Assembly: GCF_035084215.1 (NCBI RefSeq) | Contig: NC_090364.1 | Location: 4,402,001 to 4,466,000 of the forward strand | Direction of reading: 5' to 3' | Length of the DNA stretch: 64,000 nucleotides | DNA from: Heptranchias perlo | Taxonomy: Eukaryota | Shown: piece after piece, positions 4,581-64,000 of the stretch | How the letters are laid out: each line of letters begins with the position of its first letter | Position numbering within the stretch: the first letter of the stretch is position 1 | Translations under genes and position numbers: made by a program | Notes under the pieces: generated by a model | The model's database searches: none | The model's input: the letters and a program-made list of their open reading frames with translations, nothing else | What the model was told of the DNA's origin: nothing

Positions 4581-4757
4581 TTTTTTTTCCCTTTCCTTTT
4601 TATGTGTTTTAGGCCCCCCTTTTATAAGAAGGGGAGGGGGGTTTGGTTGTGTTTATGTGCAGTAAATCAATAAACCCCAAATAAGTGTCAAATTATAATG
4701 TTATTACATCGATCCAGGATGCACTCCAGTCCCTGCGGTGCCCACCGGTCACGGAAA
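4581..4757 (-). mobile_element. 5'-truncated Tx1-like element 3' end with T-rich tail
   Basis: T-rich run + AGGCCCCCCTTTTATAAGAAGGGG ... CCAGGATGCACTCCAGTCCCTGCGGTGCCCACCGGTCACGGAAA closely matches 52229-52375. Confidence 0.85.
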
Positions 4758-15429: not shown

Positions 15430-15728
15430 CCAAAGGTGACCGTCCACAGGTCCAGGCTGGACGCGGCCTGTGGGGTGGTCGCTCCGACTCGGATTCGTGG
15501 CATTCTCTGCACCCGGGTGGCCCTGGAGAGGGAGCACGCGGTGTCTGCCGTTATGCTTGAGGCTTTCTGCGACCGGTGGGCACTGCAGGGATTGGAGTGC
15601 ATCCTGGAACAATATAATAAAATTATTTGACTCTTATTTTTAGTTTAATGATTTGCTGCAAATAAAAACACTCCCTAACCACCTCTTCTTATCAAAGGGG
15701 GGTGAAAAACAAAGGAAAAAAAAGAAAA
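15430..15728 (+). mobile_element. Tx1-like 3' relic upstream of copy 4
   Basis: KVTVHRSRLD..RVALEREHAVSA..LEAF.DRWA.QGLECIL, then 3'UTR CTTCTTATCAAAGGGGGG and an A-rich tail. Confidence 0.85.
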
Positions 15729-15990
15729 CTAGATGAACCTCACTTATAAAAAGTCAACCTGGAGAAAAAAAAACTTTCAATCCTATTCGTGTTTGGACAA
15801 TTAGCTCCAAACGGGAAAATTTATCTGGAGTTTGGAGCCCGTGTGGAGATTCGAGTGATCCATGGCCACAGAGCACCGAGGGAATGATTGGTCCGTCAAC
15901 CAGCCGGCACCAGTACCTCAGGCCAGTCCCACCGTCCCTTCAGAGCTCACTGATCTGCACAAAGAAAAAGTGCCCCATCTTAGAGTTATT

Positions 15991-16146
15991 TTCTTTGGGT
16001 TTTTTTCTATTTTTTTTGTGATTTTAGGACGCCCTTCTATGAGAAGGTGGGGGTTTTAGGGTGTGTTTATGTGTGAAAATCCCAAAGCAAAACCAAAACA
16101 AGTTCAAATTATAATTTTATTATTCTTGTCCAGGATGCACTCCAGT
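15991..16146 (-). mobile_element. Short 5'-truncated Tx1-like 3' end with probable 9-bp TSD
   Basis: T-rich tail...TTCAAATTATAATTTTATTATTCTTGTCCAGGATGCACTCCAG, flanked by AGAGTTATT (15982-15990) and AGAATTATT (16147-16155). Confidence 0.75.
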
Positions 16147-21001: not shown

Positions 21002-21347
21002 TCAAAGGTGACCATCCACAGGTCCTGGCTGGATGCGGCCCGTGGGGGCGGTCGCTCTGACTCTCTGCCTCGCTTCCGCAGCATTCTCTGCGCCCGGGTG
21101 GCCCTGGAGAGGGAGCACACGGTGTCTGCTGGTAAACTTGAGGCTTTCCGAGACCGGTGGGAGGCGCAGAGCTCGGAGTACGTCCTCGACTCCGACAATA
21201 AAGTTATGATTTGATTCTGGTTTTGTTGGATTTCGTAATAAAGAAATGAAGGTGACAAAAATACAGGTGACACTGGGTCTAAAGACAGCAACACAAGTGC
21301 CCCATCTTAGAATTATTTTAGTCAAACAGAAGAAAAGAGGGAAAAAC
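21002..21347 (+). mobile_element. Tx1-like 3' relic upstream of copy 5 with 13-bp TSD
   Basis: TIHRSWLD..ARVALEREHTVSAGKLEAFRDRW, flanked by AACCCAAAAAGCA at 20989-21001 and 21348-21360. Confidence 0.85.
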
Positions 21348-41371: not shown

Positions 41372-41666
41372 CAAAAAAAAGCAGTGATATCACTGAGACC
41401 AATCACCCAAACCAGCCTGTATTCCAAAGCTCTGATTGGCTCTGGGTATCAACCTCTCCTCCACCACGCCCCTGTCCTTTGTTAATTGGTGCCTGGATTC
41501 ATGGACGATTCCTGATTGGTTATCGGGAATTGTCAATCATCATTGGTGATGTCATTCCTTGCTTCAATGCGGGCTGTCCCAGTAGTATAAATACAAGAGC
41601 TTGTGAGGGAAGTGGGTAGATGTAGAACTATCTAGGTGATAGTGAAAATATAAAGATATAGTGACA

Positions 41667-43482
<1,816 letters not shown>

Positions 43483-50265: not shown

Positions 50266-51717
50266 AATTGTACAAGTGGGTGTGGATTTGTTGATGAGTT
50301 TAATGACTTCATATTTCAGATGAAAAGTCTTCAGCTCACTCTGTGCTGAACCTGGATGTGGATCAGCTGCAAACATTCCCCACACTGAGGTCACAACTGG
50401 GCTAATGGGGGTTAACTGTTTACACCTCAAAGCAAAATAAGGTCAATGTTCACCTCACTCTGTGCTGATATGTTTCCTACAGTCTGATTACAATGAAGAA
50501 TAGCTCTGGTAGCAGCTTCCCCTGGTGATGGGCTAGAAAATACATGTTTGTTCTTCTGGAAGAGGAATTTCTGTGTTTACATTCAAAGGGATTGTGTGAT
50601 GGGGAAACAGTTTTATTCCAAGGGAACCCATCTTATCACTTCATCCAGGACTGAAAATCTCAACTATTTTCAATAAAACCAGATGTCAAGACTTTGGATC
50701 TCAAAAAGAAATACCAATGTGATGAGCCAGACTGTTGGAGCACATCAGAGTCTCATCATTTCAATTAGATTCAAATATTCTTTAGCCTCATTGAAAGCTG
50801 ATCATAAAAGGACTCATCCAACATGCCAGAGGACACAAAGAAAGAATTGCATTGATATAGTGACATTCATGACCTCAGGACATCCCAAAGTGCTTTACAG
50901 ACAATTAAGTACTTTTGAAGTGTAGTCCCTGTTGTAATGTGGGAAAAGCATCGGCCAATTTGCCCACAGCAAGGTCCCACCAATAGCAATTAAATAATAA
51001 CTAGATAATCTGCTTAAATTAGGTTGGCTGAGGAATAAATATTCGGAAGGACACCACAAACCACTCCCCTACTCTTGCTCGAAGTAGTGCCATGGGATCC
51101 TTTACATCCACCAAAGTGAGCAGACAGGTCCTCAGTTTAATGTCTCCCTCGGTGTTGCACTGAGGTATCAGTCTAGACTTTGTGCTCAATTCCCTGGAGT
51201 GGGACTTGAACCCACAACCTTCTGACTCTGAGGTGAGAGTGCTGCCACTGAGCCACAGCTGACACAAATGGAGATGTTTGTGTGGGTGACATTGCATTCA
51301 GTAATCTTCACTCCCTCTCATTCTCGCTGAATATCCTGAATTTTACCAAACAACATTTCATGAGAATCAAACATAAAAATGACACATCCCACAATGCTTT
51401 GCCCAGTTGATGCCCCCATGCTGCCAATCCTCAGACACACCCATTCTCTATATTAGAACTGGGGACGATTCACACCATCCATGGGATGGAATTTCCATTT
51501 CTCTGTCCAAGATTTGGTTTGCAAATTCACTCAAGACGACTTGATTGCGTTGAATATTGTCTCATCATCACTGTTACTTGCAAGTAATAAACTTGACCAG
51601 ATTATGAAAAGCCACTTCAGTGAAAATATCAAATTATTATCAAATAATTCAAAGTTGTGATTCTGAGAGATTTATACAAAGAGGCACTATGAGGGAGGTC
51701 AAAGAACCCAAAAAGCA

Positions 51718-52035
51718 CCAAAGGCGACCATCCACAGGTACAAGACGGACACGGCCTGTGGGGGCGGTCGCTCCGACTCTCGTCCGCAGCATTCTCTGCG
51801 CCCACTTGGCCCTGGAGAAGAGCATTCCGTGTCTGCCGTTATGGTTGAGGCTTTCCGCGACTGGTGGGAGCAGCAGGGACTGGAGCGAATCCTCGACTCT
51901 CACAATAAAGTTATAATTTGATTCTGGTTTTGTTTGATATCGTGATAAAGAAATCAAGATGTCCAAAAAAAAATACAGGTGACACTGGGTCTCAAGACAG
52001 TTACACAAGTGCCCCATCTTAGAATTATTTTCGTC
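51718..52035 (+). mobile_element. Tx1-like 3' relic upstream of unit 11
   Basis: Near-identical to 41054-41371. Confidence 0.8.
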
Positions 52036-52045
52036 CAAAAAAAAA

Positions 52046-52159
52046 GATATCACCGAGACCAATCACCCAAACCAGCCTGCATTCCAAAGCTCTGATTGGC
52101 TCTGGGTATCAACCTCTCCTCCACCACACCCCTGTCCTTTGTTAATTGGTGCCTGGATT
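52046..52159 (+). promoter_or_regulatory. Distal half of the ferritin promoter of unit 11, interrupted by retrotransposon insertion
   Basis: Matches ~41386-41499 up to GGTGCCTGGATT, then switches to poly-T. Confidence 0.9.
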
Positions 52160-52304
52160 TTTTTTTTTTTTTTTTTTTTTTTTTCCTTTCTTTTTTCTTT
52201 TTTTTTTTCTCTTTTTTTTTTAATTATTAGGCCCCCCTTTTATAAGAAGGGGGGGTGTGGGGTGTGCTTAAATACTAAAAACCAAATAAACCAAAACCAA
52301 GTGT

Positions 52305-55300
52305 TCAAATTAAAATTTTATTATCCTCGTCCAGGATGCACTCCAGCCCCTGCGGTGCCCACCGGCCGCGGAAAGCCTCGAGCGTACCGGCAGACACCGC
52401 GTGCTCCATCTCCAGGGCCACCCGGGCGCGGAGCATTCCGCGGAAGAGAGGCAGACAGGCCGAGCGACCGCCCCCACGGACCACGATCATCCTAGACCTG
52501 TGGATGGCCACCTTGGACAGGCCCAGGAGCAGGCCCACGAGAACGTCCACCGACCTGCCCGCCCCCCTCCTCACCGGGCGGCCAAAGATCAGGAGCGTGG
52601 GACTGAAATGCAGCCAGAACTTGAGGAGCAGCCCCTTCAAATAATGGAACAGGGGCTGCAGTCTCGCACACCCAGTGTACAGATGGAACACGGACTCCTC
52701 CAGGCCGCAGAAATCACACGCGGCCTGGGTGTCCGTGAAATGGCGTAACCGCCGGTTGCACGCGACTGCTCCGTGCGCCACCCTCCACCCCAGATCCCCA
52801 AAGTAACACGGGAGGACCCCTGTATAGAGAGCCTCCCAATGGGGACCCCCGTCTCCGCCGGACGGCAGGCTGGCACGCCAGGGCGTGTCCGGCCGAGAGA
52901 CGAGGGCGAGGAAGTGGATGGTGTGCAGGAGCAGCCCGTACAGGAAATCCCTCCGCGCGGTGTGAAACGGCACGGAGGGAATTTCCGAGAGACGACTCAA
53001 GTTGTGAGGCGCGGCCCCCCGAGGGAGGTTCCGGGGTTTGGCGCCGAGGAGGAATTCCGTCCGAACGGGGGTCAGGTCGGACGGGATGGCTCCGCACGCC
53101 TGAGCCGCCTCCACATCCCGAGTGGAGTCAGGGCCGAGCGCCGATTTCAACGCCCGGATGGCGATGGCCGCGTCCCCGGCACGCCACGAGGACATCCGTG
53201 CGGCGAGCGCCCACGGCTCCAACCAACCCGACCCACCGCCATCCAGGACGTCCCTGACTCTGGTCACCCGACCGGCCACGGCCCTCCGCACCGACAGCCG
53301 CGAGCGGCCGAAGCCGATATCGCGGAGGAACGGATTCCCGAGCAGCGGCTCCTGCAGGACGGCCGCTACCCCTGACGGGCGAGAGCTCCGACCGGAGGCG
53401 ACCATGTTCCAGACCCTGAGCAGATCCTGGTAAAAGACAGGCAGCTCCTGCAAAGACGTGCGGCCGCCCACCAGCGAGATGAACAGGAGCTGCGTGTCGT
53501 AGTTCAGGCCGTGCAGCTGGCGGAAAAAATACGTCGCCAGCGCACGCCATCTAAGAGGACGCTCAACGTACAGGTATCGCCGCAGCGTCCGAAGGCGGAA
53601 AGTTGCCACCTGGGTGCGGACGCACACCAGCCCCTGACCGCCCTCCCTAAGCGGGAGACTCAGGACCGCGGCAGCGACCCAGTGTATCCCTCTGGCCCAG
53701 AAGAAGTCGACAAACTTCTTCTGAATCTTGGCGACAAACTCAGGGGGGGGGGTCAAAGTGACCAACCGGTACCACAACATGGCGGCCACCAGCTGGTTTA
53801 TGACCAGCACACGACCCCTGTAGGATAACACTCGGAGCAGTCCTGTCCAGCGCGCCAGGCGAGCGGCGACCTTGGCCTCCAGCTCTTCCCAGTTCGCCGG
53901 CCAGGCTTCCTCGGCAGGGCCGAGGTAGACTCCCAGGTACCGGAGGTGCGTGGTACTCCAGGCGAAAGGCCAGAGCTCCTCCGGCAGGGAGTCCACCCGC
54001 CACTGACCCACCAGGAGTCCGGAACATTTCTCCCAGTTGATCCTTGCGGAAGACGCCGCAGAGTAGACCTCTTGGCACTCGCGCATCCTCCGCAAGTCAA
54101 GGGGATCCGTGACCACGAGGAGCACGTCGTCGGCGTAAGCCGAAAGGACGACCTCCACGTCCGGCTCGCGCAGAGCCAGTCCCGACAACCTCTTGCGCAA
54201 GAGGCGCAGGAAAGGCTCCACGCAGACGGCGTATAATTGGCCGGACATGGGGCACCCCTGACGCACTCCTCTCCCGAAGCGAAGGGGCGCCGTCAAGGAT
54301 CCGTTAACCTTAATCAGACACTCCGCGGCGGCGTACAGAAGTCGGATCCGGGCGACGAAATGCGACCCGAACCCGAAAGCGCGCAGAGTCCCGAATAGAT
54401 ACTCGTGATCCACCCTGTCGAACGCCTTCTCCTGATCTAAGGAAAGGAAGGCGACCGACAGACCAGCCCTCTGGGAATGGTGGATCAGGTCCCGGACCAG
54501 ATGGATGTTATCGTGGATCTTCCGGCCCGGGACCGTGTAGGACTGGTCGGGGTGGATCATGTGGGCCAGCACGGTGCCCAGGCGAGCAGACATCGCCTTG
54601 GCAAAGACCTTATAATCCGTGCTGAGGAGGGAGACCGGGCGCCAGTTTTTAAGGTTGCGGAGATCCCCCTTCTTAGGCAGCAGGACCACGACCGCCCTGC
54701 GCCACGAAAGGGGCATCTCCCCGGTCGCCAGACATTCCCCCAGGACCCGCGCGTAGTCGCCCCCCAGGACGTCCCAGAAGGCCCTGAGGAACTCCACGGT
54801 CAGCCCGTCCAGCCCCGGGGACTTGCCCCTGGAGAGCTGGTGGAGGGCGCCGGTCAGCTCCGCCAAACTGAGCGGAGCGTCCAGACGCTCGGCGTCCTCC
54901 GGGCCGACCTTCGGCAAGTCCTCCCACAAAACTCTGCGCGCCTCCTCGCTGGACGGATCCGGAGAGAACAGAGCCTCGTAGAAAGATCGAGCCCGGGCCC
55001 TGACTCCCTCCGGGTCCGAGACGAGGGACCCGTCGTCGGCCAGCAGTGTAAGGAGCTGCTTACGAGCCCCCCGCCGCTTTTCCAGCGAGTAGAAGAAGGG
55101 AGAGCCGCGGTCCAGGTCCCGCAGGAGCTGGAGCCGCGACCTCACGTACGCTCCTCGGGACCCGACCAGTTGCAGGTCCCTCAGAGCGTCCTTCCTCTCC
55201 TCGTACACCTGCCGCAGGGCCGGATCCTCGGCGGCCTGACCGAGACGGGACTCCAGGCCAAGCACCTCCTGCTCCAACCGCCTGACCTCGGACTCCCGCC

Positions 55301-56210
55301 TCTTAGTCGACCCCCTCGCGTACTCTTGACAGAAGAGGCGGACGTGAGCCTTGCCCACGTCCCACCATAGCCTCAAGGAGGAGAAGCCTCCCCGCTTCCC
55401 TCTCCAGTCGCTCCAGAACAGACGGAACGAGTCCCGGAACCGCGCGTCCTCCAGCAGCCGGTTGTTAAAGTGCCAGTACGCGGACCCCGAACGGGCGCGG
55501 AGCAGAGCGAGCTCCATCCACACCAGGTGGTGGTCCGAGCACGACACCGGCCGGATGGAGGCCGACGGGACGCAGGAGGCGTACGCCCGCGAAACGTACA
55601 GGCGGTCGATTCTGGTGCTCCCCCCTCCGGCCCTCACAAAGGTGAACTGGCCGGAGTCGGGATGGAGATTCCGCCAGACGTCCACCAAGTCGAAGGACCC
55701 GACCAGGTCCCTCAACTTCTCCGTCGCCGTTCGGGCACGCGCGGGACCGGAGCGGTCCCTCGCCTCGAGGGTACGGTTAAAATCCCCCCCGAGGATAATG
55801 CACTCGCCGGCGTCGACGGAGTTTAGGTAAGTGGACACTTCTTCAAAGAAGCTCACTTGCTCGCCCTCGGACCAGGGGGCGTACACGTTCACCAGGTGAA
55901 GCGGCACGTCCCCGTGGCGAAGGGCTACGTGGAGCAAGCGGCCCGGCACCGGCTCCTTGACCCCCAAGATCTCCGGCTGAAAAGTCGGGGCCAACAAGAT
56001 GGCCACCCCGCTCGAAACGCTGGCGAGGTGACTCAAGTAGACCCCCCCTCCCCATTCCAGGATCCACGTGGCCTCGTCTCCCGGAACGGTGTGGGTTTCC
56101 TGCAGAAAGCACACCGCATACTTCCCATCCCGCAGGACCGAGAACTTGTCAAATCTACGGCGGGCGTCTCTGCCGCCGTTGATGTTGAGGCTGGCTATGG
56201 TTATCTCCAT
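52305..56210 (-). CDS. Tx1-like ORF2: APE endonuclease, reverse transcriptase and C-terminal zinc finger (1301 aa from MEITIASLN)
   Basis: APE motifs SLNING, LQETH, GGDFN, RIDR, SDH. RT motifs KSPGLDG, NWRPVSLL, LDQEKAFD, GVRQGCP, YADD, YLGV. C-terminal CDFC..ESVFHLYTGC. Confidence 0.95.
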   Translation of the reverse strand: MEITIASLNINGGRDARRRFDKFSVLRDGKYAVCFLQETHTVPGDEATWILEWGGGVYLSHLASVSSGVAILLAPTFQPEILGVKEPVPGRLLHVALRHGDVPLHLVNVYAPWSEGEQVSFFEEVSTYLNSVDAGECIILGGDFNRTLEARDRSGPARARTATEKLRDLVGSFDLVDVWRNLHPDSGQFTFVRAGGGSTRIDRLYVSRAYASCVPSASIRPVSCSDHHLVWMELALLRARSGSAYWHFNNRLLEDARFRDSFRLFWSDWRGKRGGFSSLRLWWDVGKAHVRLFCQEYARGSTKRRESEVRRLEQEVLGLESRLGQAAEDPALRQVYEERKDALRDLQLVGSRGAYVRSRLQLLRDLDRGSPFFYSLEKRRGARKQLLTLLADDGSLVSDPEGVRARARSFYEALFSPDPSSEEARRVLWEDLPKVGPEDAERLDAPLSLAELTGALHQLSRGKSPGLDGLTVEFLRAFWDVLGGDYARVLGECLATGEMPLSWRRAVVVLLPKKGDLRNLKNWRPVSLLSTDYKVFAKAMSARLGTVLAHMIHPDQSYTVPGRKIHDNIHLVRDLIHHSQRAGLSVAFLSLDQEKAFDRVDHEYLFGTLRAFGFGSHFVARIRLLYAAAECLIKVNGSLTAPLRFGRGVRQGCPMSGQLYAVCVEPFLRLLRKRLSGLALREPDVEVVLSAYADDVLLVVTDPLDLRRMRECQEVYSAASSARINWEKCSGLLVGQWRVDSLPEELWPFAWSTTHLRYLGVYLGPAEEAWPANWEELEAKVAARLARWTGLLRVLSYRGRVLVINQLVAAMLWYRLVTLTPPPEFVAKIQKKFVDFFWARGIHWVAAAVLSLPLREGGQGLVCVRTQVATFRLRTLRRYLYVERPLRWRALATYFFRQLHGLNYDTQLLFISLVGGRTSLQELPVFYQDLLRVWNMVASGRSSRPSGVAAVLQEPLLGNPFLRDIGFGRSRLSVRRAVAGRVTRVRDVLDGGGSGWLEPWALAARMSSWRAGDAAIAIRALKSALGPDSTRDVEAAQACGAIPSDLTPVRTEFLLGAKPRNLPRGAAPHNLSRLSEIPSVPFHTARRDFLYGLLLHTIHFLALVSRPDTPWRASLPSGGDGGPHWEALYTGVLPCYFGDLGWRVAHGAVACNRRLRHFTDTQAACDFCGLEESVFHLYTGCARLQPLFHYLKGLLLKFWLHFSPTLLIFGRPVRRGAGRSVDVLVGLLLGLSKVAIHRSRMIVVRGGGRSACLPLFRGMLRARVALEMEHAVSAGTLEAFRGRWAPQGLECILDEDNKILI

Positions 56211-56239
56211 GGCAAGAGCACAGCGCAACCTACTTAAAG

Positions 56240-58282
56240 CTAACGCGCGGAGGGAGCGGGGCCGCTCGTCGACCGCCACTCCCTCAAGAGCCCGGTGAGG
56301 AGGGATCTGAGCCGACGCAGCCCGACCCCGCCGTCGTCCCCTTCCGCGGCCACGGACGCGACGGCGGCCAGGACCGAGCGGATTAACTGCGCCGGCTCCG
56401 ACCAACGGTCGAGGGCCAGCCGGACGCCATCGCGACGACGGCTCCAACCGGACGCAAAATCCCGGAGTTCCTCAACGGGGATGAGGGGAGACTCGGTGCC
56501 GGGCACGAGGGCGTCCACCACCTCACTGGCGGCGAACTCTAAATCCTCCCCAGTGCCCACCACCGAGTCCCCGTCCTCCTCCGGGTCATCGTCGCCCGCG
56601 GCCGACCCACTCCCCGCACAGGGTGCGGAGAACGAGACGGCCGCGCCGGCCAGCCCCGCCTCCGCCACGATCCCACCCCCAGGATCGTCGGCAGAGGAGT
56701 CCTCCCCGGGCTCCACCGGGGGGTCCGAGTCAGACGGCGGCGCCGGGCGGGGACCCTCCCCAGCCTCCGAGCGGTGAAAAACCGGCACCCGGATATAAGG
56801 GGAACCCGGGGAAACCGGGGAGAACGTGTACTCAAGTTCTCCCACCTCCCCCGGCTCCGAGCCCAGAGACTGAGAGGAGGGGGTCTCCCCACCCACGTCG
56901 CCACCGACCGACCCGGCCGGTGAGATATTCTGGTTAAAACCCACCACCAGGTCGAGCAGGTCCTGGGAGAGGTCGAGCCGGGGGCAGACGAATTTGGCCG
57001 CAACGGCCTCGCCCACCCCGGCACCCAGGACGCCCGACCCGGTGAACAGGGTAGTGTCGGGTAAATGCGGATCCGCGACCCCCCCTATCGGCGGGGTCTC
57101 TCCATCCCCCCCGGGAGGCACGGGCACGATCTCCTCCCCCCGAGAGGTGGATGACCCCCGCCGCTGTTCGGATGTCACGGGCGGGGCCGCAGGATCCGCG
57201 ACCGGCACCGACTCCCCTTCCACGGGGGGCCGTCCCTTAGCAGGGAGCCCGTTCGCTTCCGGGGAGTGGCGCCTCTTTTTCTTCCCGGGGGGTCGCGGAG
57301 GGAGGGGGAACTCCACGTCTGCTGGGACCCCCACCTCCGCTCCCTCCTGATCACCCGCCAGCCCGGGCTCTGTCGCGACCGCGAGATGTTGACTGGCCGC
57401 GGTCACGGCCTCGGGCTGACTCAGATCTTCTCTGTCCCGGGGACCAGCCTCTAAATTCTTCCTCTTTCTCCGCGCCTTTCTCTGGCGAGGGTTCCCCTCC
57501 TCCCCCCTGGCGGAGGCCTCGACGCCAACCTCCACCCGCGCAGTTGACTGTCCCGACGCGGGGGCGGGGTTGGGGGGAGGAGCGGTGGCGGCGCCAGCCC
57601 CGGCCGCCGTAGCTGTTTTGGCGGCCTGAGAGGCAGGGCAGTTCCTCTTCAGGTGCCCCACCTCCTTACAGGCATGGCACCGCCCACCCTCTGCCGTCCA
57701 AAAGACGCGGTAAGGGATCCCCTCGTGGAGGGCGTTAAAGCCCCCCTCCGTAACCTCCTCCCGTGCCAGCTTGACGAATGCCTGGCGACGGAAGGAGTAA
57801 ACATGCCGGAGGCTGTTCTCCCTGAGTCCGAGCGGCAGCGGCGTTACCCCCGACCTCACCTCCCCCAGTTGACGTAGGTGGGGGAGGAGGAGCTCGTCCG
57901 ACAGGAAAGGCGGGACGTTGGATAAAATGACTCGCTGCGCGGTGGCCTCCAGCGGGTCCACCGGCAGGAAGGTCCCGCCAACCGTGAGCCCCTTACTAAG
58001 GGCCAGGGACACCGCCCGCTCGGACCTCAGGAAGAACACCGCCCTCCCGTACATTTTTGAGGCCGCGACGATGGCCGAGGGGCCGACAACCTCGGCCATG
58101 GCCTTTACGCAGGCCTCAATGGTCATGTTGGGGTGGGCGTAGCTCTTCACCCCATGCTTCCTCGTAATGAGGCGGAAAGGCGCCGGCCCAGCAGGAGCGG
58201 CACGAACTGTAGGAGCGGCCCCCGAGGTAACCGCCGCATACGTCCTGCTGGGTCCCGGCACCGGCGAAGATGGTGAAGCCAT
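56240..58282 (-). CDS. Tx1-like ORF1: nucleic-acid-binding protein with CCHC zinc knuckle (680 aa from MASPSS)
   Basis: Long ORF upstream of ORF2 with CHACKEVGHLKRNC knuckle, an RRM-like N-terminal region (AASKMYGRAVFFL, VILSNVPPF), a basic NLS-like patch and a low-complexity C-terminal half. Confidence 0.9.
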   Translation of the reverse strand: MASPSSPVPGPSRTYAAVTSGAAPTVRAAPAGPAPFRLITRKHGVKSYAHPNMTIEACVKAMAEVVGPSAIVAASKMYGRAVFFLRSERAVSLALSKGLTVGGTFLPVDPLEATAQRVILSNVPPFLSDELLLPHLRQLGEVRSGVTPLPLGLRENSLRHVYSFRRQAFVKLAREEVTEGGFNALHEGIPYRVFWTAEGGRCHACKEVGHLKRNCPASQAAKTATAAGAGAATAPPPNPAPASGQSTARVEVGVEASARGEEGNPRQRKARRKRKNLEAGPRDREDLSQPEAVTAASQHLAVATEPGLAGDQEGAEVGVPADVEFPLPPRPPGKKKRRHSPEANGLPAKGRPPVEGESVPVADPAAPPVTSEQRRGSSTSRGEEIVPVPPGGDGETPPIGGVADPHLPDTTLFTGSGVLGAGVGEAVAAKFVCPRLDLSQDLLDLVVGFNQNISPAGSVGGDVGGETPSSQSLGSEPGEVGELEYTFSPVSPGSPYIRVPVFHRSEAGEGPRPAPPSDSDPPVEPGEDSSADDPGGGIVAEAGLAGAAVSFSAPCAGSGSAAGDDDPEEDGDSVVGTGEDLEFAASEVVDALVPGTESPLIPVEELRDFASGWSRRRDGVRLALDRWSEPAQLIRSVLAAVASVAAEGDDGGVGLRRLRSLLTGLLREWRSTSGPAPSAR

Positions 58283-58980
58283 GACTGAGAGCCACACCCA
58301 CCCCAAGTCTCAGGCCTTTGGATGGAAATTGGCCTTTTTTTTTAAAAGAATTCTTGAGGATACCTCTCTCCCCGAATCCCAGTGCTTGGTTGGGAGAGGG
58401 CCCCTTTGTTGTTTTTATATATTCCCAGAATACCCCGGAGAGCAAGGGAATATCCCAGAGAGCAGGAGAAGGTGGGAGGGATGGATGGCAGAATGGGAAG
58501 GAGGGAGTCTGCAGGGGTCGGCTGCTGCAGAAGTGGGTGGAAGAGGGGCGGGGTTGCACCTTAAAAGGTGGATCCTCTTCTGCCTGTCTTCCGGTGGGCA
58601 GGGGGAGGAGATGTCTTCCCCTAGACAGCTGGAGCTGCCTAGGCTCAGCCCTCCAAAGATTTGAAAAAGAAAGTAACTTCACCCAGGCAGCTCCAGCTGT
58701 CCCGGGCCAGACACTTGGGGGGGGACCCCTGTCCTCTGAAGTCTTCTTCCTCCCCCTACCTTCAGCCGACACACCTCACTGCACCGACCACCTCTTCCTC
58801 CCACTGGTTGGTGCTCTTTTTCTCCTTCTCCCTCCCTCCTTGTTGATGGTGGTTTCTCCTTCTTTCTCCTTCTCCTTCTCCTTCTCCCCAAGGGACCCAG
58901 GCAAGGGCCTGCTCTCTCTGCTCTCTCTGCTCTCCACTCCACTCAGTGGCAGTCCAGCCACAAACACCTCCAAGGCCTTG

Positions 58981-59065
58981 CTGGTCTGTATTGCAAAGCT
59001 CTGATTGGCTCTGGATATCAATCTCTCCCCCAGAGCCCTGTCCTTTGTTAATTGGTGCTTGGATT
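58981..59065 (+). promoter_or_regulatory. Ferritin-promoter segment between the two retrotransposons
   Basis: CTGTATTGCAAAGCTCTGATTGGCTCTGGATATCAATC...CCTTTGTTAATTGGTGCTTGGATT is homologous to every array promoter. Confidence 0.9.
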
Positions 59066-59160
59066 TTTTTTCTTTTTTTTTATTAGGCCCCCCTTTTATA
59101 AGAAGGGGTGGTGTGGGGTGTGCTTAACAACTAAAAACCAAACAAACCAAAACCAAGAGT

Positions 59161-62100
59161 TCAAATCAAAATTTTATTATCCTCGTTCAGGATGCACTCC
59201 AGCCCCTGCGGTGCCCACCGGTCGCGGAAAGCCTCGAGTGTACCGGCAGACACCGCGTGCTCCATCTCCAGGGCCACCCGGGCGCGGAGCAACCCGCGAA
59301 AGAGAGGCAGACAGGCCGAGCGCCCACCCCCGCGGACCGCGAGCATCCTGGACCTGTGGATAGCCACCTTGGACAGGCCCAGGAGCAGGCCCACGAGAAC
59401 GTCCACCGACCTGCCCGCCCCCCTCCTCACCGGGCGGCCAAAGATCAGGAGCGTGGGACTGAAATGCAGCCAGAACTTGAGGAGCAGCCCCTTCAAATAA
59501 TGGAACAGGGGCTGCAGTCTCGCACACCCGGTGTACAGATGGAACACGGACTCCTCCAGGCCGCAGAAATCGCAAGCGGCCTGGGTGTCCGTAAAATGGC
59601 GTAACCGCCGGTTGCACGCGACTGCTCCGTGCGCCACCCTCCACCCCAGATCCCCAAAGTAACACGGGAGGACCCCTGTATAGAGAGCCTCCCAATGGGG
59701 ACCCCCGTCTCCGCCGGACGGCAGGATGGTACACCAGGGCGTGTCCGGGCGAGAGACGAGGGCGAGGAAGTGGATGGTGTGCAGGAGCAGCCCGTACAGG
59801 AAATCCCTCCGCGCGGTGTGAAACGGCACGGAGGGAATTTCCGAGAGACGACTCAAGTTGTGAGGCGCGGCCCCCCGAGGGAGGTTCCGGGGTTTGGCGC
59901 CGAGGAGGAACTCCGTCCGAACGGGGGTCAGGTCGGACGGGATGGCTCCGCACGCCTGAGCCGCCTCCACATCCCGAGTGGAGTCAGGGCCGAGCGCCGA
60001 TTTCAACGCCCGGATGGCGATGGCCGCGTCCCCGGCACGCCACGAGGACATCCGTGCGGCGAGCGCCCACGGCTCCAACCAACCCGACCCACCGCCATCC
60101 AGGACGTCCCTGACTCTGGTCACCCGACCGGCCACGGCCCTCCGCACCGACAGCCGCGAGCGGCCGAAGCCGATATCGCGGAGGAACGGATTCCCGAGCA
60201 GCGGCTCCTGCAGGACGGCCGCTACCCCTGACGGGCGAGAGCTCCGACCGGAGGCGACCATGTTCCAGACCCTGAGCAGATCCTGGTAAAAGACAGGCAG
60301 CTCCTGCAAAGACGTGCGGCCGCCCACCAGCGAGACGAACAGGAGCTGCGTGTCGTAGTTCAGGCCGTGCAGCTGGCGGAAAAAATACGTCGCCAGCGCA
60401 CGCCATCTAAGAGGACGCTCAACGTACAGGTATCGCCGCAGCGTCCGAAGGCGGAAAGTTGCCACCTGGGTGCGGACGCACACCAGCCCCTGACCGCCCT
60501 CCCTAAGCGGGAGACTCAGGACCGCGGCAGCGACCCAGTGTATCCCTTTGGCCCAGAAGAAGTCGACGAACTTCCTCTGAATCTTGGCGACAAACTCGGG
60601 GGGGGGGTCAAAGTGACCAATCTGTACCACAACATGGCGGCCACCAGCTGGTTTATGACCAGCACTCGACCCCTGTAGGGTAACACTCGGAGCAGTCCTG
60701 TCCAGCGCGCCAGGCGAGCGGCGACCTTGGCCTCCAGCTCTTCCCAGTTCGCCGGCCAGGCTTCCTCGGCAGGGCCGAGGTAGACTCCCAGGTACCGGAG
60801 GTGCGTGGTACTCCAGGCGAAAGGCCTGAGCTCCTCCGGCAGGGAGTCCACCCGCCACTGACCCACCAGGAGTCCGGAACATTTCTCCCAGTTGATCCTT
60901 GCGGAAGACGCCGCAGAGTAGACCTCTTGGCACTTGCGCATCCTCCGCAAGTCAAGGGGATCGGTGACCACGAGGAGCACGTCGTCGGCGTAAGCCGAAA
61001 GGACGACCTCCACGTCCGGCTCGCGCAGAGCCAGTCCCGACAACCTCTTGCGCAAGAGGCGCAGGAAAGGCTCCACGCAGACGGCGTATAATTGGCCGGA
61101 CATGGGGCACCCCTGACGCACTCCTCTCCCGAAGCGAAGGGGCGCCGTCAAGGATCCGTTAACCTTAATCAGACACTCCGCGGCGGCGTACAGAAGTCGG
61201 ATCCGGGCGACGAAATGCGACCCGAACCCGAAAGCGCGCAGAGTCCCGAATAGATACTCGTGATCCACCCTGTCGAACGCCTTCTCCTGATCCAAGGAAA
61301 GGAAGGCGACCGACAGACCAGCCCTCTGGGAATGGTGGATCAGGTCCCGGACCAGATGGATGTTATCGTGGATCTTCCGGCCCGGGACCGTGTAGGACTG
61401 GTCGGGGTGGATCATGTGGGCCAGCACGGTGCCCAGGCGAGCAGACATCGCCTTGGCAAAGACCTTATAATCCGTGCTGAGGAGGGAGACCGGGCGCCAG
61501 TTTTTAAGGTTGCGGAGATCCCCCTTCTTAGGCAGCAGGACCACGACCGCCCTGCGCCACGAAAGGGGCATCTCCCCGGTCGCCAGACATTCCCCCAGGA
61601 CCCGCGCGTAGTCGCCCCCCAGGACGTCCCAGAAGGCCCTGAGGAACTCCACGGTCAGCCCGTCCAGCCCCGGGGACTTGCCCCTGGAGAGCTGGTGGAG
61701 GGCGCCGGTCAGCTCCGCCAAACTGAGCGGAGCGTCCAGACGCTCGGCGTCCTCCGGGCCGACCTTCGGCAAGTCCTCCCACAAAACTCTGCGCGCCTCC
61801 TCGCTGGACGGATCCGGAGAGAACAGAGCCTCGTAGAAAGATCGAGCCCGGGCCCTGACTCCCTCCGGGTCCGAGACGAGGGACCCGTCGTCGGCCAGCA
61901 GCGTAAGGAGCTGCTTACGAGCCCCCCGCCGCTTTTCCAGCGAGTAGAAGAAGGGAGAGCCGCGGTCCAGGTCCCGCAGGAGCTGGAGCCGCGACCTCAC
62001 GTACGCTCCTCGGGACCCGACCAGTTGCAGGTCCCTCAGAGCGTCCTTCCTCTCCTCGTACACCTGCCGCAGGGCCGGATCCTCGGCGGCCTGACCGAGA

Positions 62101-63065
62101 CGGGACTCCAGGCCAAGCACCTCCTGCTCCAACCGCCTGACCTCGGACTCCCGCCTCTTAGTCGACCCCCTCGCGTACTCTTGACAGAAGAGGCGGACGT
62201 GAGCCTTGCCCACGTCCCACCATAGCCTCAAGGAGGAGAAGCCTCCCCGCTTCCCTCTCCAGTCGCTCCAGAACAGACGGAACGAGTCCCGGAACCGCGC
62301 GTCCTCCAGCAGCCGGTTGTTAAAGTGCCAGTACGCGGACCCCGACCGGGCGCGGAGCAGAGCGAGCTCCATCCACACCAGGTGGTGGTCCGAGCACGAC
62401 ACCGGCCGGATGGAGGCCGACGGGACGCAGGAGGCGTACGCCCGCGAAACGTACAGGCGGTCGATTCTGGTGCTCCCCCCTCCGGCCCTCACAAAGGTGA
62501 ACTGGCCGGAGTCGGGATGGAGATTCCGCCAGACGTCCACCAAGTCGAAGGACCCGACCAGGTCCCTCAACTTCTCCGTCGCCGTTCGGGCACGCGCGGG
62601 ACCGGAGCGGTCCCTCGCCTCGAGGGTACGGTTAAAATCCCCCCCGAGGATAATGCACTCGCCGGCGTCGACGGAGTTTAGGTAAGTGGACACTTCTTCA
62701 AAGAAGCTCACTTGCTCGCCCTCGGACCAGGGGGCGTACACGTTCACCAGGTGAAGCGGCACGTCCCCGTGGCGAAGGGCTACGTGGAGCAAGCGGCCCG
62801 GCACCGGCTCCTTGACCCCCAAGATCTCCGGCTGAAAAGTCGGGGCCAACAAGATGGCCACCCCGCTCGAAACGCTGGCGAGGTGACTCAAGTAGACCCC
62901 CCCTCCCCATTCCAGGATCCACGTGGCCTCGTCTCCCGGAACGGTGTGGGTTTCCTGCAGAAAGCACACCGCATACTTCCCGTCCCGCAGGACCGAGAAC
63001 TTGTCAAATCTACGGCGGGCGTCTCTGCCGCCGTTGATGTTGAGGCTGGCTATGGTTATCTCCAT
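59161..63065 (-). pseudogene. ORF2 of element copy 2, 1-bp frameshift near 60597-60607
   Basis: Copy 1 has CTCA-G10-TC and copy 2 has CTC-G10-TC, splitting ORF2 into the 928-aa and 590-aa ORFs. Could be a homopolymer sequencing error. Confidence 0.75.
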
Positions 63066-63094
63066 GGCAAGAGCACAGCGCAACCTACTTAAAC

Positions 63095-64000
63095 CTAACG
63101 CGCGGAGGGAGCGGGGCCGCTCGTCGACCGCCACTCCCTCAAGAGCCCGGTGAGGAGGGATCTGAGCCGACGCAGCCCGACCCCGCCGTCGTCCCCTTCC
63201 GCGGCCACGGACGCGACGGCGGCCAGGACCGAGCGGATTAACTGCGCCGGCTCCGACCAACGGTCGAGGGCCAGCCGGACGCCATCGCGACGACGGCTCC
63301 AACCGGACGCAAAATCCCGGAGTTCCTCAACGGGGATGAGGGGAGACTCGGTGCCGGGCACGAGGGCGTCCACCACCTCACTGGCGGCAAACTCTAAATC
63401 CTCCCCAGTGCCCACCACCGAGTCCCCGTCCTCCTCCGGGTCATCGTCGCCCGCGGCCGACCCGCTCCCCGCACAAAGCGCGGAGAACGAGACGGCCGCG
63501 CCGGCCAGCCCCGCCTCCGCCACGATCCCACCCCCAGGATCGTCGGCAGAGGAGTCCTCCCCGGGCTCCACCGGGGGGTCCGAGTCAGACGGCGGCGCCG
63601 GGCGGGGACCCTCCCCAGCCTCCGAGCGGTGAAAAAACCGGCACCCGGATATAAGGGGAACCCGGGGAAACCGGGGAGAACGTGTACTCAAGTTCTCCCA
63701 CCTCCCCCGGCTCCGAGCCCAGAGACTGAGAGGAGGGGGTCTCCCCACCCACGTCGCCACCGACCGACCCGGCCGGTGAGATATTCTGGTTAAAACCCAC
63801 CACCAGGTCGAGCAGGTCCTGGGAGAGGTCGAGCCGGGGGCAGACGAATTTGGCCGCAACGGCCTCGCCCACCCCGGCACCCAGGACGCCCGACCCGGTG
63901 AACAGGGTGGTATCGGGTAAATGCGGATCCGCGACCCCCCCTATCGGCGGGGTCTCTCCATCCCCCCCGGGAGGCACGGGCACGATCTCCTCCCCCCGAG
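63095..64000 (-). pseudogene. ORF1 of element copy 2 (3' part), +1 frameshift near 63632-63637
   Basis: A6 versus A5 at the equivalent site of copy 1 (56777-56781). Could be a homopolymer sequencing error. Confidence 0.65.

Follow-up and report, generated by a model that had tools for sequence, protein, structure and literature searches.

Targets described for long interspersed nuclear elements (LINEs) include small nuclear RNA genes, microsatellites, telomeric repeats and other transposons (PMC8869645). Xenopus Tx1L has a highly specific nuclease and a specific insertion site within the DNA transposon Tx1D, and the hairpin loop of its endonuclease (EN) is described as important for target choice (PMC1950540). 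Regional hot spots, tandem insertions and a proposed flank-driven transcription have been described for Tx1-Mar and SINEU, and dependence of transcription on flanking host sequence for R2 in 28S ribosomal DNA and for the MAST2-driven SVA subfamily (PMC4494074). Dictyostelium TRE5-A inserts in an oriented manner upstream of multicopy genes through promoter-bound factors rather than DNA sequence (PMC3159450), and crocodilian Utopia shows weakened specificity, with many copies outside its multicopy target (PMC4640811). Here we describe a Tx1L-lineage LINE family of the shark Heptranchias perlo that came to notice in a stretch of 64,000 nucleotides (nt) of its genome assembly (the window, C43:4402001-4466000; C denotes contigs and L loci), where two elements adjoin ferritin promoter sequence.

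The family is scattered through the genome without a fixed target, yet its complete copies gather back-to-back with ferritin promoters, which are its refuge and possibly also its on-switch. Judged by its predicted proteins, it is a retrotransposon without long terminal repeats (a non-LTR element) of the Tx1 clade and Tx1L lineage, with an apurinic/apyrimidinic-type endonuclease (APE) and a reverse transcriptase (RT). The product of open reading frame (ORF) 2 is 50% identical to that of Xenopus laevis Tx1L (YTX2_XENLA) over 1,300 amino acids, and in an RT tree of 21 sequences chosen from 120 listed, built without a Repbase Tx1 consensus set, the family groups with Tx1L and with turtle and stingray elements at 100/100, a stingray protein being its sister, which would suit a host among the cartilaginous fishes. 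The Tx1 identity suggested by the original prediction, a reading of the window from its sequence alone, is borne out. Title-level literature searches turned up no published report of Tx1 with ferritin or related terms; the family may already carry a name in existing catalogues.

With Tx1L the family shares its lineage, two ORFs, APE and RT, but it is dispersed, uses multiple sites and has a shorter hairpin loop. It resembles Tx1-Mar, Keno, Kibi and Koshi in preferring a multicopy target; theirs are RNA genes, microsatellites and transposons, whereas the shark family favours the promoter zone of protein-coding genes. Like TRE5-A, it is a non-LTR element lying in a preferred orientation upstream of multicopy genes. 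TRE5-A, however, uses RNA polymerase III genes, a window of ~50 bp and its own promoter module, in contrast to the RNA polymerase II (Pol II) gene, broad zone and mostly dispersed copies found here. R2 is strictly site-specific and co-transcribed in sense, whereas the shark elements are divergent; the MAST2-driven SVA subfamily carried a one-off capture to new sites, whereas here the promoter stays local. Utopia is similarly weak in specificity but has a restriction-like endonuclease and a U2 target. More generally, the target-preferring LINEs of the literature consulted use RNA genes, simple repeats or transposons, and here complete, productive copies reside at amplified protein-coding promoters. 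The locus offers a natural system for studying how LINE lineages gain promoters, how a preference for targets can emerge or fade when no sequence-specific nuclease is involved, and how recombination makes 5'-truncated insertions complete.

Complete copies at ferritin promoters

The 18-nt motif TTAATTGGTGC[C/T]TGGATT occurs eight times in the window, every time on the + strand. At 52159 and 59065 it runs into poly(T); the remaining six copies are empty and continue as CATAG, CATGG or TATGG, exactly the continuations listed in the original prediction. The joining of two Tx1 tails to ferritin promoter sequence at a shared nucleotide is real, and both elements lie on the - strand, antisense to the ferritin genes on the + strand. 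Element 1 was correctly described as intact, with both ORFs and the EN and RT motifs present. Position 52159 is a true host-promoter insertion, because a paralog that matches at 98.9% identity over 1,259 nt has no insertion there. The nature of the second junction had been missed. The 80 nt preceding 59065 are only 87% similar to local promoters and are fused directly to the 5' untranslated region (UTR) of element 1, which identifies this junction as an insertion into a promoter copy attached to element 1 rather than into a second gene. These 80 nt were also considered as a target-site duplication (TSD) of element 1 and rejected, being 87% identical to its left flank and common to many other copies.

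The same arrangement recurs across the genome. Exact matches to the 5' core of the element fall in ferritin clusters on C38, C43, C725 and C1048 in 55 of 56 cases, and all 39 matches to the start of ORF1 lie on the same four ferritin-bearing contigs. Forty-nine of the 56 cores were inspected, and 48 abut ferritin upstream DNA in a head-to-head arrangement. The junctions are of four types, located at -163, -243 and -247 from the TATA box. Many of these promoter stretches, hereafter heads, run on into ferritin genes, seven of the nine such genes scored being intact.

The 3' ends of the elements are likewise concentrated. They were counted across the whole genome by exact match to a 26-nt 3'-end pattern (482 matches, with places known for the first 100). 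The 504-kb ferritin cluster on C43 holds 19 of them, or 254 times the genome mean, and 11 events, or 147 times, when duplicates are collapsed; the suggestion that the array serves as a refuge is upheld by this excess of ~250-fold, or ~150-fold after collapsing. When 41 old and young rows of the cluster were collapsed by hand to 20 distinct events, 17 fell either in a head or in the 1 kb that precedes an ATG (binomial p ~8e-10 at 0.2; the events are not fully independent). Ten of 12 young events are antisense to ferritin, and the site TCAGA^TT was also used by an older copy, now 80% identical.

Outside the clusters the family is dispersed, with ordinary TSDs. None of the dispersed copies (the first 30 matches, on C1 and C2) lies in ferritin DNA and their flanks are unrelated; TSDs of 9-15 nt border 22 of the 25 copies for which both ends could be seen, and the insertion sites share only (S)T(T)^. 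Poly(A) tails, 5' truncation and TSDs are all found in the family, as expected of a non-LTR retrotransposon. By Kojima's rule, as given in PMC4494074, a share above 20% for flanks of one sequence type marks target preference; direct ferritin-upstream flanks occur in 12 of the 30 copies that most resemble element 1, which is above this threshold but counts duplicates, and in none of the 30 dispersed copies. The tails of the dispersed copies carry short tags between T runs. Ferritin-promoter tags occur in 3 of the 30, and tags derived from P2 in at least five. P2 is present in 73 copies, nearly all of them within the C38-type amplicon. Read as 3' transductions, the tags place the parent elements in the clusters. 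Read-through RNA would carry promoter sequence at its 3' end, which may help reuse of the same site.

Based on these data, we favour, with a probability of roughly 0.55, a strong regional and mostly antisense preference for the open promoter zone of the amplified ferritin genes, and for P2 as a second amplicon sequence, combined with a reservoir. As part of this reading, a weakly selective endonuclease would insert genome-wide by target-primed reverse transcription (TPRT), and the redundancy of ferritin genes would make insertion damage tolerable. Several results weigh against it. Many cluster copies are DNA duplicates; among 40 CAGA^polyT junctions, all nine inspected on C38, C725 and C1048 share one tail and represent one duplicated event. 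A sister subfamily, ~82% identical in its 5' part, has 22 5'-UTR matches, 21 of them on C38, C725 and C1048, and nine of the 22 lie within ~300 nt of P2 and not of ferritin, which indicates a tie to the amplicon and not solely to ferritin. Ferritin promoters are the main seat of the subfamily of element 1. Heads exclusive to ferritin were also considered for the wider family and are ruled out by the P2 heads of the sister subfamily.

Alternatively, the clusters could be a passive reservoir, in which an element with its own promoter and no real preference would insert a few times by chance, be tolerated in redundant genes and gain copies through segmental duplication, gene conversion and unequal crossing-over, with full-length copies purged from the rest of the genome. 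The weak insertion-site consensus is compatible with this, as are the duplicated blocks on C43, the single CAGA^TT event present in many copies, the mosaic elements and identical tails at three array junctions described below, and the P2 copy number, which marks C38 as a large amplicon. What makes a passive reservoir doubtful is that the density excess survives the collapsing of duplicates and that insertions crowd the promoter zone though introns and spacers make up most of the DNA. The orientation bias points in the same direction, and so do the repeated use of one site, by copies both old and young, and the many different tails at identical nucleotides.

Proposed array formation and possible promoter use

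Element 1 is the first of five copies arrayed head-to-tail, and the far end of the array meets a ferritin promoter and gene head-to-head at C43:4488481. The 5' end of each copy is fused to a head, within which the tail of the next copy lies at GGA^TT. Divergence among the copies is 0.8-3.2%, and they are mosaics; in the neighbouring pairs El1/El2 and El4/El5 the 5' parts are identical and the 3' parts are not. Two separate insertion events had been proposed for the pair in the window. This holds insofar as the tails and 3' ends of the two elements differ, but three junction tails of the array are identical, which indicates that recombination contributed to the pair. The ferritin gene at the far end carries a nonsense codon. 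It is a different paralog, and the original partner was therefore removed by recombination. Two truncated copies, of 161 nt and 214 nt, recur along with the 5' flank of each but bear new tails, and no third junction is left over. On C30, a full-length copy standing alone (L198:560-790 and 7540 onward) is bordered by a TSD of ~205 nt.

These features fit a mechanism in which a new promoter insertion beside a resident copy would begin by TPRT and be finished by pairing with the resident. Such pairing would duplicate the 5' part of the resident together with its promoter stretch and so yield head-to-tail arrays, which unequal crossing-over would shuffle further. The identical 5' parts, the repeated truncated copies and the C30 TSD are all in keeping with it, and resident-guided completion would account for complete copies arising almost only in clusters.

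CCAAT boxes are linked to two-way promoters, and a capped RNA start adds an extra base at a retrotransposed end. In the C30 copy the end lies 9 nt into sequence of ferritin type and has one extra base, which suggests a capped start just upstream of the element core. A founder inserted ~230 nt upstream of TATA would lie head-to-head with the ferritin gene and could be transcribed from the divergent, CCAAT-rich side of the promoter; the element probably uses that side. Contigs from four public runs, all from a single sample and presumed to be RNA, bridge the element-head junction, in one run with a spliced ferritin exon 1-2 end and very high contig depth; they give no strand, start or level and were not used as evidence for or against transcription.

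The TATA box is altered in many attached promoters. Among heads of the commonest type, found at element 1 (type A; Table 1), that reach TATA, it is mutated in 14 of 19, with six distinct changes in 7 nt as opposed to ~12 in the other 215 nt (p ~1e-5), the remainder of these heads being nearly invariant. Genome-wide, TATA is lost from 15 of 30 attached promoters versus 3 of 41 free ones (p 6e-5; the copies are related). In attached heads such mutations would be favoured if they stop ferritin-direction transcription from running antisense into the next element. Selection by the element, selection by the host for ferritin dose and a hot spot of mutation are all possible causes, and the mutations lend themselves to a reporter test of the conflict between host and element over a single promoter.

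A more far-reaching proposal, which we put forward tentatively and at well under even odds, is that this vertebrate LINE lives as a tenant on a protein-coding promoter read by Pol II. It would have no sufficient promoter of its own, be switched on from the divergent side of ferritin promoters active in the germline, re-create this arrangement at each insertion by homology-guided completion, and repeatedly select TATA-less host promoters that silence ferritin while the element is kept on. Counting against promoter use by the element, in this form and in the reading favoured above, the TATA difference on C38 alone is not significant (12 of 22 attached versus 2 of 6 free, p 0.65), none of the four attached C43 promoters scored is mutated, and the 5' UTR of the element holds TATA-like and CCAAT words of its own, compatible with an internal promoter. 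Some adjacent heads within one array also differ, which simple local copying fails to explain; conversion, unequal crossing-over or RNA-borne heads therefore also act.

Differing neighbours are among the observations that could be read as promoter capture at the RNA level, as with MAST2 in an SVA subfamily: a promoter stretch within the retrotransposed RNA would anneal to the target, and each insertion would bring a replacement promoter. An identical type A junction precedes different ferritin paralogs, and switches occur within the promoter; the tags attest read-through into heads. Recombination between paralogs accounts for the switches, however, and no dispersed copy with a long head inside its TSD was found, the single copy outside the clusters having 9 nt. 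A host-derived head carried within the TSD to new loci, as in the SVA subfamily, is not seen here, and capture appears improbable. At locus L141 (C38:14765178), a short inversion lies within a type A head, between two CCAAT boxes.

Insertion sites and sequence specificity

The original prediction regarded the elements as a target-specific family that inserts at GGATT^, and had held that unrelated 3' flanks in most near-identical copies would refute it. Tabulation largely gave that outcome. GGATT^polyT junctions number 22 genome-wide (0 for a control pattern), against 482 3' ends; by hand reading, ten are in heads, nine are short tags inside tails and three are direct insertions in gene promoters. 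Within the promoter, insertions recur at -227, -88, -77 and ~-53 from TATA, just past TATA in one case (CCAGAAC^TT), and at other positions further upstream. Neither the concentration of most 3' ends at one nucleotide of one target, as in Tx1L and Keno, nor the narrow fixed distance from the gene typical of TRE5 is found. Strict sequence specificity is rejected.

Nicking of GGATT^ in ferritin promoters by a sequence-specific endonuclease, comparable to the action of Tx1L-EN on Tx1D, would be in line with the 22 exact junctions with several tails, with the site specificity of Tx1L as the closest characterised relative, and with the RGA^TT shared by the main cluster sites. Set against the small share of all 3' ends, the unrelated dispersed flanks with their (S)T(T)^ consensus, the several promoter sites and a hairpin loop that in alignment is shorter than that of Tx1L and rich in Gly, such specificity is very unlikely. 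That the tandem pair is an assembly artefact, as the highly repetitive region and the three identical junction tails might suggest, is most unlikely, given the divergence among the five copies, the like arrays on four contigs and the contigs that bridge the type A junction in three public runs, which come from one sample and may not be independent.

Ferritin genes, P2 and further features

The ferritin gene has four exons, encodes 176 amino acids on the + strand and lies in a repeat unit of ~5 kb; the Pfam Ferritin model matched single exons weakly. Its TATA box is 88 nt past the GGA of the insertion motif. An Rfam scan of the whole window gave no match, and hence no iron-responsive element, at gathering score. 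Exon 1 has at least 137 matches in the genome; among the 100 matches listed, 97 are on C38 (9.6-17.7 Mb) and C43. The C43 cluster (4.27-4.77 Mb) contains 77 ferritin genes, at least 56 of them intact, and literature searches found no published report of a large ferritin amplification. Within this array, C43:4488218-4534014 is a segmental duplication of ~45.8 kb, with an inverted arm at ~4639000 to 4723000. Single exon-1 matches outside the clusters, at C5:24822347, C9:17349917 and C26:22521859, are perhaps retrocopies.

Element 2 has a frameshifted ORF2 and a shortened ORF1, and its 5' 1.4 kb is identical to that of element 1. A candidate zinc knuckle in ORF1 of element 1 matches zf-CCHC with E 0.0017, short of the cut-off. 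Older Tx1 fragments also occur upstream of ferritin promoters in the window, and the sense fragment in the second row of Table 1 has relatives at 21002, 26559, 36240, 41057 and 51721.

Table 1. Tx1-derived and ferritin features of the window (positions within the window)
Feature	Position	Strand	Remarks
Old Tx1 3' fragment (79%)	4581..4757	-	Antisense, 444 nt upstream of ferritin ATG, at TCAGA^TT
Two old Tx1 3' fragments	15433..16145	.	Upstream of ferritin promoter; 15433-15728 sense, 15989-16145 antisense
Uninterrupted ferritin promoter (example)	41399..41591	+	ATTGG at 41435, 41485, 41515 and 41542 (CCAAT on element strand); CCAAT 41399; GGATT site 41499; TATA 41586
Ferritin gene (example)	41667..43482	+	Exons 41667-41768, 42484-42630, 42853-42978, 43327-43482
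Host ferritin unit hit by element 1, upstream half	50900..52159	+	Coding part missing; empty paralog C43:4628618-4629876
Element 1, full-length Tx1L-lineage LINE	52160..58988	-	T-rich tail ~52160-52225, 3' UTR, ORF2, ORF1, ~700-nt 5' UTR
Element 1 ORF2	52305..56210	-	1301 amino acids, predicted APE endonuclease and RT, intact; EN hairpin loop 8 residues, Gly-rich (Tx1L: 11)
Element 1 ORF1	56240..58282	-	680 amino acids, one zinc knuckle (below Pfam cut-off)
Type A head	58986..59065	+	Ferritin promoter copy (-163 to -88 from TATA) fused to element 1 5' end at CTG microhomology; cut at GGA^TT by element 2
Element 2	59066..64000	-	Second of five tandem copies; runs on to window position ~65840

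P2 (C38:9.1-17.9 Mb, C725 and C1048; L025:1-1378, L197, L212-L214) contains CCAAT-like boxes and serves as a second hot spot, a source of tags and the head of the sister subfamily. A look by eye at 2.4-3.7 kb downstream of three copies recognised no gene; a degenerate tRNA-like stretch was noted by eye ~2.2 kb downstream of P2.

Some tails hold up to five short promoter-derived tags between T runs (L185, L118, L119, L182 and L030), a pattern that suggests repeated rounds of 3' transduction or template jumping. A tail tag of ~95 nt with a CTGATTGG box (L160, L177 and C43:4527110-4527200) is common to dispersed and cluster copies, and its source locus was not found. Finally, a truncated copy with a 120-nt ferritin-promoter tag and a short TSD lies in GC-rich, promoter-like DNA outside the clusters (L117 and L122; C402 and C1392).

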